This document shows, piece by piece, positions 52,608 through 63,882 of a stretch of DNA of 64,000 nucleotides; the first letter of the stretch is position 1; each line of letters begins with the position of its first letter. A program made the position numbers and the translations under genes. Origin of the DNA: a virus (lineage: Duplodnaviria; Caudoviricetes); IMG/VR virus record IMGVR_UViG_3300010149_000008. The stretch is one strand, 5' to 3'. The notes under the pieces were generated by a model. The model did no database searches. It was not told the DNA's origin and saw nothing but the letters and a program-made list of their open reading frames with translations.

Positions 52608-53984
52608 ATGAGCTTAGAAAAAAACTTTTCAAAATTCGGCAAACCTTTTCAAGAAAAAGTATTTCAAGGAATGCTAACAGACCCCATGTGGTCAGGACAA
52701 ATGGTAGAAGTAGTCAGTCCAGACTATTTTGACTTGAAATATCTTAGCTTCTTATGCGACAAGTATTTTTCTTATTACAAGAAGTATAAAACTTTTCCAA
52801 CACTTACAATTTTAATTACAATTATTAAAGAAGATTTATCAAAATCTAAAGATTCAATACTAAGAGATCAAATAATAGAGTATCTTCATCGTATGAAAAC
52901 AAATCCTGACATTGGTGATCTACAATATGTAAAAGATAAGTCACTAGAGTTTTGCAAGAGACAGGCATTTAAAGAAGCGCTAGAACAAAGTGTTGATCTA
53001 ATTCAAACTGAAAAATATGAGTCTGTTATTAATATAATGAAAGAAGCAATTTCTGTTGGTATGCCTAATACCGCCGGGCACAATTTCTTTGACGATATTG
53101 AAGCACGTTTTGTCCAAATTAATAGGCAAGTTTGTCCAACAGGATTGACTAGAATTGATGCACAAGACATTTTAAGAGGTGGTTTAGGCAGAGGAGAGCT
53201 AGGAGTAATTGCAGCAAATACAGGAGTTGGTAAATCACACTTCTTAGTAGCAATGGGATGTGCTGCAATGTTAGCGGGTAAAAATGTAATCCATTATACA
53301 TTTGAGCTATCAGAGCATGAAACTGGAAAGAGATATGACTCAAATCTTTGTGACATACCTTCAAATGAAGTTATTGAAAGAAAGCGAGAAGTAGTTGGAA
53401 AATATGAAAAAATGGAACTAGGCAAATTAATAATTAAAGAGTATGCTACAGGCTCTGCTTCTGTCATGACTTTAAGAAATCATATAGAAAAATTAACGCT
53501 AAAAGGTTTTAAACCTAGCTTAGTAACAGTTGACTATGCTGATGTTATGAAAAGTTCTAGAGCTTATGACTCTTTAAGACATGAATTAAAACTTATATAT
53601 ACAGAATTAAGAAATCTTGCTGTAGAGCTTAACATACCGATATGGACAGCTTCACAAGCAAACAAAGATTCTTCAAAGTCTGATATTGTTGGTCTAGAAA
53701 ACTTAGGAGAGTCATATGGTAAGGCACAAGTAGCTGATGTTGTGTTGTCCATAAGCAGAAAGCCTATGGAAAAAAGCGAAGGTACTGGTAGAATATTTGT
53801 AGCAAAAAACAGAGCGGGAAGAGATGGTCTTCTATTCCCTATAAATATTGACACAGCAAAGTCTAAGTTTAAAATTTTGGATGAAAGTGAACTGACGCTT
53901 AATGAAGCTGTTACTCAAGACAATAGTGACATGAAAAACAAATTAAGAGAAAAGTGGAAAGAGGTAAACAAAAAAGATGATTAG
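52608..53984 (+). CDS. Replicative DnaB-like helicase (T4 gp41-like)
   Basis: GELGVIAANTGVGKS, YTFELSE, VTVDYAD, IWTASQAN, AQVADVVL, AKNRAGRDG. Confidence 0.93.
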   Translation: MSLEKNFSKFGKPFQEKVFQGMLTDPMWSGQMVEVVSPDYFDLKYLSFLCDKYFSYYKKYKTFPTLTILITIIKEDLSKSKDSILRDQIIEYLHRMKTNPDIGDLQYVKDKSLEFCKRQAFKEALEQSVDLIQTEKYESVINIMKEAISVGMPNTAGHNFFDDIEARFVQINRQVCPTGLTRIDAQDILRGGLGRGELGVIAANTGVGKSHFLVAMGCAAMLAGKNVIHYTFELSEHETGKRYDSNLCDIPSNEVIERKREVVGKYEKMELGKLIIKEYATGSASVMTLRNHIEKLTLKGFKPSLVTVDYADVMKSSRAYDSLRHELKLIYTELRNLAVELNIPIWTASQANKDSSKSDIVGLENLGESYGKAQVADVVLSISRKPMEKSEGTGRIFVAKNRAGRDGLLFPINIDTAKSKFKILDESELTLNEAVTQDNSDMKNKLREKWKEVNKKDD

Positions 53985-54489
53985 TATTTTTCTTAGTGAC
54001 GAGTTAAAAGATGTTTTAAAAGAAAACAACATTAGTGTACATAATTATATTCCTGCATATAATGGTGAAAGTGCAGGTCTAGATTTGTTTAATTGTAATA
54101 AAGATATTTCGTTAATACCTACGCAGTATAAAAATGTTACAAATGAAAAACACTACACACAGCATAAATTTAAGACGTTAATATCAACAGGTTTAAGATT
54201 GATTGTTCCTAAGGGATATGTTGCACTAGTTCAAGAACGCGGTTCTATTACAAAAACTCCTCTTAAGGTTAGAGCAGGCGTTATAGATAGCGGTTATACA
54301 GGCGAAATATTTGTTAATTGTATTAACATTGGTTCGAAACCTTTTAACTTAAAAAAAGGGCAGAAGTTACCTTTTCAAATTGTAGTAGTTAAATGTGACA
54401 ACAATTTTAGAGTAATAGATGAAAAAGAATATTTAACATTATCATCAGCTTCTCAAAGAAAAGAAGGAATGGTGGGAAGTTCAGACTAA
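53977..54489 (+). CDS. dut: Trimeric dUTPase
   Basis: SAGLDL, STGL, ERGS, GVIDSGYTGEI, RKEGMVGSS (motifs 1-5). Confidence 0.88.
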   Translation: MISIFLSDELKDVLKENNISVHNYIPAYNGESAGLDLFNCNKDISLIPTQYKNVTNEKHYTQHKFKTLISTGLRLIVPKGYVALVQERGSITKTPLKVRAGVIDSGYTGEIFVNCINIGSKPFNLKKGQKLPFQIVVVKCDNNFRVIDEKEYLTLSSASQRKEGMVGSSD

Positions 54490-60261: not shown

Positions 60262-60483
60262 ATGGAAAATAAAGATTTTAAATTAGATGACAATGTTATT
60301 GCACACATTGCAAGAATTTTACAGGTTTCAATGCTTACTGGAACTGATATTATTGATCATATGAGAATGATTAGATTTACTTGTAAAGATGAAAAGTTAG
60401 TATTGCAAGATGAGTACGCAAAAATTTTTGATGGATCTTTAGACAACATGCTTAAAAATGCGCAAGAAAAGAAAGATGACTAA
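60262..60483 (+). CDS. Small hypothetical protein
   Basis: 73 aa, SD agga, TAATG overlap with the next gene. Confidence 0.6.
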   Translation: MENKDFKLDDNVIAHIARILQVSMLTGTDIIDHMRMIRFTCKDEKLVLQDEYAKIFDGSLDNMLKNAQEKKDD

Positions 60484-62803: not shown

Positions 62804-62807
62804 TTAC

Positions 62808-62836
62808 GTGTAAATATTGTCAACACGTATTATAAT
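62808..62836 (+). promoter_or_regulatory. Sigma70-like early promoter
   Basis: GTGTAA-N17-TATAAT upstream of the second ThyX-like gene. Confidence 0.75.
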
Positions 62837-62895: not shown

Positions 62896-63882
62896 ATGCC
62901 TGTTAACAACAATCTTGAACCAGTAGCACTTCCTATGCAGCTTAAGTTTGGACAAGATCCAGTTACAAATTACATTAACAATCTAGAATCACTAAAAGTA
63001 GAAGTAATTGATGCGCCTACAAGAGAACAAGCACAAAATATTGCTTGGCACATGACAAAAGCAACATGGGCAGATTCACCTTCTGAAACTGATTTTAAGA
63101 ACTCAACACCCGAAGAGGCTTCTACAAATCTTCAAGATGTACTTAATTTTCGTGCACTTCCTACTCCAATGGAGTGTTTAGGATTTACATTTAAGATTAG
63201 TGGTATTGATGTACAAACTGTTACACATCTTATTCGTCATAGAGCAGGATCTTTTGCAGCACAATGTACAGGTGACAGAGACTTGAGACACGATAATGCA
63301 CTAGTTCCTGAGTCAATTGAAAACTGCAGAAAAGATGATGATGACTTTTATTTTAGGTATTTAGATATTGTCAAGGAAGCAAAACTACTATACTCTGAAA
63401 TGGTTGATAGCAAAAAAGTTTCAATGATGGACGCAAGAGTAATACTTCCTAAGTGCATGGAGACTTTTTATATTGCAAGATTTAATCTTAAAGACTTGAT
63501 CGGTTTTATTAAACAACGTCAAGACGTTCAAATCCAACCTGAGGTTGATAATATTTTAGCAACGCGCATCGCACGTGCTGTTTGTGAAGCAATTCCAGAA
63601 GTATCAACTTGTCTAGACTTTAACAAGCCTGATATGCACTACGTAAGAACTTTTAGAGTTAAATTGCCAGATGGAACTTACACTTCTCGTGGAACAAATC
63701 TATATCAGCCAGAACCTAAAAATGATTTATTTGATTATAATGAAAATGATTCAATATACCAGTGCAAAAGAGAAGACTTAAATGGTAATAAGTCAGGTGA
63801 AGAAAAAGTATTTACACGAATGTGGAATGACGATGTAAAAGCTGTAAGTTTAATTAAACAAAAACTTAATAGCGAATTTTAG
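62896..63882 (+). CDS. Second, divergent ThyX-like flavoprotein
   Basis: FTFKISGID..TVTHLIRHRAGSFAAQC, DARVILP, NLKDLIGFIKQR; motif Ser replaced by Cys. Confidence 0.8.
   Translation: MPVNNNLEPVALPMQLKFGQDPVTNYINNLESLKVEVIDAPTREQAQNIAWHMTKATWADSPSETDFKNSTPEEASTNLQDVLNFRALPTPMECLGFTFKISGIDVQTVTHLIRHRAGSFAAQCTGDRDLRHDNALVPESIENCRKDDDDFYFRYLDIVKEAKLLYSEMVDSKKVSMMDARVILPKCMETFYIARFNLKDLIGFIKQRQDVQIQPEVDNILATRIARAVCEAIPEVSTCLDFNKPDMHYVRTFRVKLPDGTYTSRGTNLYQPEPKNDLFDYNENDSIYQCKREDLNGNKSGEEKVFTRMWNDDVKAVSLIKQKLNSEF

Follow-up and report, generated by a model that had tools for sequence, protein, structure and literature searches.

Why would a phage that already encodes a canonical flavin-dependent thymidylate synthase, ThyX, carry a second ThyX-like gene whose active-site motif has been rewritten? 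The question is raised by a 64,000-nt stretch of DNA (the window) from the IMG/VR virus IMGVR_UViG_3300010149_000008 (Duplodnaviria; Caudoviricetes). The window is part of a 133-kb virus record that is estimated to be 53% complete, and the genome hosting the gene has a GC content of 31.9%. An earlier note on this DNA had described the ThyX-like paralog near the 3' end of the window, here called P0001, as carrying Cys in place of the serine of the RHRx7S motif, lacking the Arg that follows and bearing a C-terminal extension of ~90 residues, and had proposed a changed substrate or chemistry. We found that P0001 belongs to a large clade in which the ThyX motif Ser-x-Arg-Tyr is replaced by Cys-[Ser/Thr]-Gly-Asp (the CTGD clade). 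Together, our analyses suggest that P0001 may be a functional member of a distinct clade of ThyX-fold flavoenzymes rather than an ordinary thymidylate synthase, with a pyrimidine nucleotide other than thymidine monophosphate (dTMP) as its product and deoxyuridine monophosphate (dUMP) as the likeliest substrate, a reading that we are about as ready to accept as to doubt.

The paralog keeps the ThyX fold with a rewritten active-site motif

The P0001 open reading frame (ORF) begins with ATG, with GGAG 6 nt 5' of the start. Among Pfam families its product matches Thy1 only (PF02511; 73.9 bits, E 1.9e-20, residues 45-235, cut-off 24.8), and not the ThyA family PF00303, while its score of 54.6 bits against the NCBIfam thyX equivalog TIGR02170 falls under the cut-off of 87.9. 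An AlphaFold2 model made from 60 homologues reached pLDDT 95.3 and pTM 0.91, and Foldseek matched this model to ThyX structures with probability 1.00 and a target-normalised TM-score (TMt) of about 0.75. PolB (PDB 4p5b), a ThyX-derived methylase, also gave a TMt of about 0.75, and its query TM-score of 0.55 was one of the highest among the matches listed. P0001 is longer than the Thy1 domain at both ends, with about 25-30 extra residues at the N-terminus and, since the domain ends at residue 235, a C-terminal extension of ~93 residues, in agreement with the length given in the earlier note. This extension is kept across the clade (P272 86%) and is modelled with high confidence, largely as well-packed coil with a long terminal helix at residues 305-327.

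When we ran HMMER against PDB chains, residues 72-234 of P0001 aligned with Thermotoga maritima (Tm) ThyX (12-residue tag subtracted), and the best sequence match was PDB 3g4c, the T. maritima S88C mutant and the only chain among those listed that has Cys at the Ser88 column. Unlike P0001, 3g4c carries one engineered substitution and is canonical elsewhere, with Arg90 and Tyr91 present. In P0001, Tm Ser88 corresponds to Cys124 (TGT), Arg90 to Gly126 and Tyr91 to Asp127, so both the Cys and the loss of the following Arg had been read correctly. The alignment further places Leu88 at His53, Thr110 at Arg74, His111 at Gln75, Ala122 at Glu86, Lys199 at Arg165 and Gln212 at His178, and Asn169 is also altered. 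On the other hand, RHR (Tm R78, H79, R80) is retained, as are the equivalents of Arg147 (R181), Arg174 (R208) and Asn163 (N197); conservation in the family is 100% for R114, 97% for R181 and 98% for R208. A basic residue lies two positions past Gly126, R128 (R or K in about half of the clade), followed by R131 (67%), and R128 or R131 could partly stand in for the lost Arg90.

In ThyX, RHR contacts the flavin pyrophosphate, Arg147 the nucleotide phosphate and Arg174 the O4 of the pyrimidine or uracil, and His53 stacks against folate. The retained arginines suggest that a 4-oxo pyrimidine nucleotide still stacks on the flavin. Ser88 and Tyr91 of ThyX are strictly conserved and critical and Arg90 is conserved; in the methylene-transfer step the flavin carbinolamine forms hydrogen bonds with Ser88 and Tyr91, the latter being tuned by Arg90 (PMC11940539). 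Since the residues replaced in P0001 are those assigned to this step, a changed product seems likelier than an altered fold or a loss of activity.

The motif switch marks a large, mainly viral clade under purifying selection

To place P0001 among its relatives, we ran a word-indexed search, which returned 1068 homologues. The best 120 of these are 77-89% identical to P0001, come from marine and other metagenomes and, where labelled at all, are labelled thymidylate synthase. The closest subfamily alone comprises >1000 clusters at 90% identity, and when 50%-identity representatives were searched exhaustively, 499 proteins matched at E < 1e-3, 130 of them at < 1e-10. Aligned full-length representatives share the segment R-x-R-x6-7-[SA]Q-C-[ST]-G-D-x-D-x-R-H. 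In a maximum-likelihood tree built with the motif columns removed and rooted on S-x-R-Y-type sequences, all C-[ST]-G-D proteins fell into one 82-row clade (SH-aLRT 90), and S/T-x-R was retained on branches closer to the root. This is a mainly viral or phage-borne clade in which S-x-R-Y was switched to C-[ST]-G-D.

The switch is consistent where the arginine is concerned: the Arg90 column holds Arg in 0/82 clade members compared to 14/16 outgroup sequences, Arg165 is absent from 82/82, and the His53 column is Leu in 72/82. R78, R80, R147, R174, E58 and the tyrosine Y166 are nearly invariant. The Ser88 column holds Cys in 61 of the 82 members, Ser in 10, Gly and Thr in 4 each and another residue in 3, and the 21 members without Cys represent ~10 independent losses, to S, G, T, A or N. 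CTGD itself is present in 199/199 close relatives, namely the best 120 homologues and 79/79 full-length IMG/VR relatives. Whether the Cys defines a clade, a question raised by the earlier note, is thus answered in part, as the motif switch does so while the Cys is dispensable in a quarter of the members. Since the Cys is replaced in a quarter of diverse members, an obligatory Cys nucleophile is argued against, and the alignment does not support such a nucleophile as a universal feature of the clade. The ThyA-like chemistry that the note had implied does not hold as a general feature; its broader proposal of a changed substrate or chemistry gains indirect support from the clade-wide motif loss, the sub-equivalog score, coexistence with thymidylate synthases and a conserved neighborhood.

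Median pairwise dN/dS was about 0.14-0.15 in the core and 0.19 in each extension, which indicates that the P0001 gene is under purifying selection along its entire length. The motif change is therefore neither chance nor decay. An inactive ThyX-fold protein, acting as a nucleotide- or flavin-binding regulator or as a scaffold, would account for the loss of several catalytic residues, but the other active-site arginines and the new motif QC[ST]GD-x-D-x-RH are strongly conserved, dN/dS is low, and the setting among enzymes suits an enzyme, so we find this barely credible. In the literature, we found no paper describing the CTGD clade.

Other unusual ThyX-like proteins came to light in these searches. 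The "thymidylate synthase" of Pbunavirus-like phages is non-canonical too: in Pseudomonas phage phiKTN6 (L102:4854-5768) and Xylella phage MATE2 (L103:4037-4792), the protein has R-T-R for RHR, T-S-R-A without Tyr91 and a C-terminal extension, and its place in the tree is intermediate between the CTGD clade and canonical ThyX. Of the ThyX-like representatives P0151 (515 aa) and P0175 (346 aa), one bears a C-terminal HNH/His-Me endonuclease domain and is probably a homing-endonuclease fusion; the other is joined to a GH92 domain and is probably an assembly chimera.

ThyX-like genes persist beside conventional thymidylate synthases

The two ThyX-related proteins of the window are scarcely alike (BLASTP E 1e-4 across 41 residues), and their genes lie 3 kb apart on the same strand. 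A search of the 133-kb record, ~53% complete, with PF00303 gave no match. A canonical ThyX gene accompanies the ThyX-like gene in the complete genomes G001 (239.5 kb with terminal repeats, 100%) and G015 (284 kb, 100%) and in the incomplete G002-G004, G013, G014, G017, G020 and G023. In G018 (98%), which is related to Geobacillus phage GR1, a ThyA homologue accompanies the ThyX-like gene, while GR1 (cultured, complete) and G019 (100%) carry the ThyX-like gene alone. A conventional thymidylate synthase thus stands beside the ThyX-like gene in 3/5 complete or near-complete genomes. The ThyA-fold gene of G018 (G018:C1:76045-76806) could encode either a synthase or a hydroxymethylase. That the two genes have been retained together across 59-89% protein divergence speaks for roles that are not redundant.

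These findings bear on the possibility that CTGD proteins are genuine but divergent second thymidylate synthases, which would turn dUMP into dTMP with, for example, another reductant or under other regulation, and supply deoxythymidine triphosphate (dTTP) for a genome of 32% GC. Such a role would suit the ThyX fold, the retained RHR, Arg147 and Arg174, the low GC, and the dUTPase-like, Tmk-like, nucleotidase and thymidine kinase neighbors described below, which fit dTTP supply, and the nitroreductase gene beside the GR1 ThyX-like gene could provide a reductase. GR1 and G019, which carry the ThyX-like gene only, also speak for it. On the other hand, Ser88, Arg90, Tyr91 and His53 are lost clade-wide (PMC11940539), the score lies under the equivalog cut-off, and the gene is stably retained with canonical ThyX and, in G018, with ThyA. 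A second synthase would also leave the link to a rare nucleoside 2-deoxyribosyltransferase (NDT) unexplained, and we regard it as possible but unlikely.

A nucleotide-metabolism neighborhood surrounds the gene

We next compared the surroundings of the gene in 80 loci from IMG/VR that are related to that of the window; the features of the window are collected in Table 1. The NDT gene lies directly 3' of the ThyX-like gene in 78/80 loci, and the other 2 loci end earlier. On the 5' side, the gene for the all-alpha nucleoside triphosphate (NTP) pyrophosphatase is present in 67/80 and the small ORF before it in 65/80; the latter had no match in family libraries. The dUTPase_2/NT5C fusion is variable and clearly optional (44/80).

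Table 1. Features of the window that bear on the ThyX-like gene
Feature	Position	Strand	Basis or remark
Trimeric dUTPase / dCTP-deaminase-like gene	53977..54489	+	Pfam dUTPase 48.4 bits, DCD 28.8 bits; same replication and nucleotide block
Canonical ThyX P0002, 238 aa	59099..59815	+	Pfam Thy1 165 bits; TIGR02170 173.2 bits, over 87.9 cut-off
Canonical motif RHRTWSYNEISRRY in P0002	59345-59386	+
73-aa ORF, candidate small partner or regulator	60262..60483	+	Fixed position, always preceding the pyrophosphatase gene
All-alpha NTP pyrophosphatase (MazG / dimeric-dUTPase-like), 125 aa	60483..60860	+	phrog_12184 nucleotide pyrophosphohydrolase, E 4.6e-16; weak Pfam dUTPase_2
dUTPase_2-like all-alpha and NT5C-type 5'-deoxynucleotidase fusion, 308 aa	61877..62803	+	Pfam dUTPase_2 29.3 bits, NT5C 28.3 bits
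ThyX-like paralog P0001, CTGD clade	62896..63882	+	328-aa ORF
Altered ThyX motif RHRAGSFAAQCTGD, residues 114-127	63235..63276	+	RHR kept; Ser88, Arg90 and Tyr91 replaced
Cys124 codon TGT	63265..63267	+	Cys in 61/82 diverse clade members and 199/199 close relatives
C-terminal extension, residues 237-328, past the Thy1 domain	63604..63879	+	Pfam boundary, model
Start of NDT gene, 149 aa	63963..64000	+	Continues beyond the window; full gene L004:1167-1616; Pfam Nuc_deoxyrib_tr 49 bits

We found no gene for thymidine kinase, dCMP deaminase or thymidylate kinase in the 133-kb record (~53% complete); a thymidine kinase gene is present in relatives. Further downstream, 65/80 loci carry an extended short-chain dehydrogenase/reductase (SDR) of the nucleoside diphosphate-sugar epimerase/dehydratase type at a distance of 1.5-7 kb (L004:2619-3608), and the SDR gene is followed by an HNH-endonuclease-like gene (L004:3664-4443). 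The 92-bp gap 5' of the P0001 gene holds an inverted repeat, ACGTGT-N12-ACACGT, followed by TATAAT (62806-62830), and the repeat occurs only this once within the window; a scan for promoters and terminators gave no signal over chance.

The NDT link recurs in distant members of the clade

To see whether this setting extends beyond close relatives, we examined more distant ThyX-like loci. The gene order is dUTPase_2, NDT, YfbR-type HD 5'-deoxynucleotidase and ThyX-like in L010, while L005 has NDT, a Tmk-like kinase and a ThyX-like protein whose N-terminal region is weakly GT2-like (22.1 bits, just under the Pfam cut-off of 23.3). L006 combines a dUTPase_2/NT5C fusion comparable to that of the window with a P-loop protein and a distant ThyX-like gene, and in L104 a radical-SAM gene follows the ThyX-like gene. 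In L106 and L107, NT5C-like, Tmk-like and ThyX-like genes are followed by a small ORF, a TET-associated glycosyltransferase two genes from the ThyX-like gene (34.7 bits, over cut-off) and a dUTPase/DCD gene. In GR1, the order is NDT, thioredoxin, HD, glycosyltransferase, P-loop NTPase, RNase H, nitroreductase and ThyX-like (UDY80709.1). The GR1 nitroreductase gene, directly 5' of the ThyX-like gene, encodes a candidate flavin reductase partner, and the GR1 block (24.9-kb piece L001) has 31.9% GC, equal to the marine phage, and also carries amidoligase and gamma-glutamylcyclotransferase genes. Related-locus searches started from three single distant proteins returned no loci.

A census of neighbors within 5 kb in 16 ThyX-like lineages of <65% mutual identity found the all-alpha NTP pyrophosphatase and NDT in 12/16 each, a DnaE-type Pol III alpha (PHP) in 11/16 (e.g., L141:7365-10724; GR1, L001:13802-17590), a YfbR-like HD 5'-deoxynucleotidase in 8/16, SDR in 5/16 and an Fpg/Nei glycosylase in 4/16. 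The formamidopyrimidine/Nei-type DNA glycosylase (L173:3380-4189 and 32 other loci) is not a usual phage gene and may be connected with oxidised or modified pyrimidines. Of 50,697 cultured-phage records, only 8 contain NDT homologues of the window's type; the best one is in GR1, and among cultured phages GR1 alone has a CTGD protein. We considered whether the NDT-like gene encodes a nucleotide N-glycosidase of the DNPH1/MilB type and rejected this, as the best PDB relative of the window NDT is the N-deoxyribosyltransferase 6evs (E 2.3e-11, compared to E 0.29 for DNPH1). Since its PDB relatives are true deoxyribosyltransferases, the substrates of the enzyme are probably nucleosides, in keeping with the recurrence of a 5'-nucleotidase.

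Could the module then serve salvage or pool rebalancing, with NDT and nucleotidase turning G/C into A/T deoxynucleosides for an AT-rich genome whose DNA stays canonical? The true-type NDT, the thymidine kinase of relatives, the 31.9% GC and the PurA-like and GuaC-like genes of G001 and G003 would all agree with it. This explanation does not account, however, for why a remodelled rather than a canonical ThyX pairs with NDT, nor for the glycosyltransferase and radical-SAM links of distant members, and in our view it has only a slight chance of being right.

The glycosyltransferases also bear on whether the clade could be specific for cytosine, converting deoxycytidine monophosphate (dCMP) into 5-methyl- or 5-hydroxymethyl-dCMP in a T4-like pathway built on a ThyX scaffold. 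Cys124 would attack C6, Asp127 would handle N3/N4 as in C5-cytosine methyltransferases, and the pyrophosphatase would be a dCTPase. With C-x-G-D in place of S-x-R-Y, one hydrogen-bond donor is gone and a thiol and an acid are placed next to the pyrimidine, canonical ThyX alongside implies that thymine is still made, the TET-associated glycosyltransferase near a distant member belongs to a family linked to 5-hydroxymethylcytosine, and an all-alpha NTP pyrophosphatase is at hand as partner. However, 21/82 members have replaced the Cys, and the equivalent of Arg174, which in ThyX contacts uracil O4, is 98% conserved, favoring a 4-oxo base. We consider a cytosine substrate quite improbable.

Comparison with known enzymes and modification pathways

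Compared to ThyX/FDTS (flavin-dependent thymidylate synthase; EC 2.1.1.148; T. maritima TM0449 and M. tuberculosis ThyX), P0001 has the same fold, RHR and the Arg147/Arg174 equivalents. It differs in the changes S88C, R90G, Y91D, H53L and R165K, in extensions at both ends, in its sub-equivalog score and in its occurrence alongside a canonical ThyX. The polyoxin enzyme PolB, a C5-methylase of uridine monophosphate (UMP) and dUMP, sets a precedent as a neofunctionalised ThyX paralog beside a housekeeping copy (PMC5954106). PolB resembles P0001, with which we compared it by structure match only, in being a ThyX paralog that coexists with a conventional copy; it differs in methylating uracil nucleotides, in belonging to a Streptomyces antibiotic cluster and in having neither CTGD nor an NDT/pyrophosphatase module. 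The best reading of our finding is a neofunctionalised ThyX paralog clade, like PolB in principle.

T4 and SPO1 clear the canonical nucleotide with a pyrophosphatase and a nucleotidase. The T4 gp56/gp42/gp1 and SPO1 pathways share a logic in which the canonical nucleotide is destroyed and a C5-modified one is made, phosphorylated and sometimes glycosylated, and genes for a pyrophosphatase, nucleotidase, Tmk-like kinase and glycosyltransferase are found around ThyX-like genes. The modifying enzyme of these phages (T4 gp42, SPO1 gp29; PF00303) has the ThyA fold, unlike P0001 with its unrelated ThyX fold, and NDT is not known to belong to either pathway.

The phage SP-15, which hypermodifies thymine, encodes two Thy1 proteins, the proposed thymidylate synthase gp9 and gp130, for which a role as hydroxymethyl-dUMP synthase has been hypothesised (PMC5977210). 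The SP-15 record has an NDT gene, SP15_127, at a distance of 1 kb upstream of gp130 and separated from it by an SDR gene, and the YfbR-type nucleotidase SP15_090 is encoded elsewhere. Listeria phage LIS04, grouped with SP-15 by its DNA polymerase (Carin-5 paper; PMC12686479), has HD, NDT and a ThyX variant (LIS04_124) with a T-S-R-T motif in which the Arg is retained. SP-15 and LIS04 thus resemble CTGD phages in combining canonical and aberrant Thy1 copies with an NDT gene, which in their case lies ~1 kb upstream of the aberrant one, and with an HD/YfbR nucleotidase encoded in the genome. We rejected gp130 as a direct relative of the CTGD clade (hhalign probability 6.3%), and LIS04_124 is remote from it (hhalign 93%, 17% identity); tblastn with LIS04_124 found no match in SP-15. 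Since both variants, whose function is putative, are separate lineages of the fold, the grouping of aberrant Thy1, NDT and nucleotidase is a convergent context rather than shared ancestry. SP-15 also illustrates how a canonical thymidylate synthase and a modified-thymine pathway can coexist, since its thymine is only partly replaced.

A similar module is found in phages that use 2-aminoadenine (dZ), where in the MazZ/DatZ/PurZ module a YfbR-like HD enzyme and an NTP pyrophosphatase of the all-alpha type are likewise paired with NDT near the replicative polymerase. A recent preprint describes the co-occurrence of NDT with the HD enzyme DatZ in dZ phages and proposes that it drains dA (10.1101/2025.10.22.683976). 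We rejected dZ/PurZ as a general explanation of the neighbors, since only G001 and G003 had a PurA-like gene, at a distance of 43-48 kb and beside a GuaC-like gene, and none was found in GR1 or the incomplete records G002 and G004-G008. In G001 (L092:1321-3587; G001:C1, about 11.4-13.6 kb) and G003, this 402-aa adenylosuccinate-synthetase homologue adjoins a 352-aa IMPDH/GuaC-like gene, and the pair could serve G-to-A purine conversion for an AT-rich genome or include a PurZ-like enzyme.

A possible route to a modified pyrimidine

How would such an enzyme serve the phage? In the pathway we propose, P0001 would still bind flavin and a uracil-type deoxynucleotide; with Ser-x-Arg-Tyr, which acts in methylene transfer from the flavin, exchanged for Cys-Thr-Gly-Asp and with His53 and Arg165 lost, its product would be C5-modified and not dTMP, likeliest 5-hydroxymethyl-dUMP or a related hydroxylated pyrimidine nucleotide. 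The all-alpha NTP pyrophosphatase and a 5'-deoxynucleotidase (NT5C here, YfbR-type HD elsewhere) would degrade the competing canonical nucleotide, NDT would recycle the deoxyribose of the degraded nucleotide, and the phage DnaE polymerase would insert the new nucleotide into DNA. In a folate-free version, the flavin itself would oxidise or hydroxylate the pyrimidine at C5 or thymine at its methyl group, which would fit the loss of His53, Ser88 and Tyr91. Such folate-independent chemistry on a ThyX scaffold is conceivable, since ThyA-fold enzymes use flavin to hydroxylate a pyrimidine nucleotide, making 5-hydroxy-dCMP (PMC13326640). In distant members, the TET-associated glycosyltransferase, the GT2-like fusion, the GR1 glycosyltransferase and the radical-SAM neighbor are links to the tailoring of a hydroxylated base. 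Extended to the whole clade, and held with somewhat more doubt than belief, the proposal is that CTGD proteins may be flavin-dependent ThyX-fold synthases of a non-canonical DNA pyrimidine, with an NDT-based drain of the canonical nucleoside, in abundant marine jumbo phages and GR1, and so a second, non-homologous counterpart of the ThyA-fold hydroxymethylases of T4 and SPO1.

Several findings weigh against this proposal. The ThyX-like gene is the sole thymidylate synthase homologue in the complete genomes GR1 and G019 and could simply be their thymidylate synthase, and a genuine thymidylate synthase, too, is normally accompanied by dUTPase, a Tmk-like kinase, nucleotidases and thymidine kinase. 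The marine genome G001, which is complete, contains neither of the two glycosyltransferase families searched for, the TET-associated one (TAGT) and GT2; glycosylation is thus no general trait, and sugar tailoring, if any, is lineage-specific. The precedent of SP-15 gp130 is distant from the clade by hhalign, and the role of gp130 is itself a hypothesis. Finally, the T. maritima S88C mutant is reportedly still active, so Cys alone is compatible with dTMP synthesis.

Implications for phage DNA chemistry

Databases call CTGD proteins "FAD-dependent thymidylate synthase", though they lack residues that the ThyX mechanism needs and stand beside a real thymidylate synthase. If they make a modified pyrimidine, many abundant ocean phages would have a DNA chemistry that standard annotation has missed, with a bearing on the evasion of restriction and CRISPR and on sequencing bias. 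The known flavin chemistry of nucleotides would also gain a new reaction, the ThyX field would have a natural test of what Ser88, Arg90 and Tyr91 do, and phage deoxyribosyltransferases would acquire a role. With GR1 in culture, the idea is open to direct testing.

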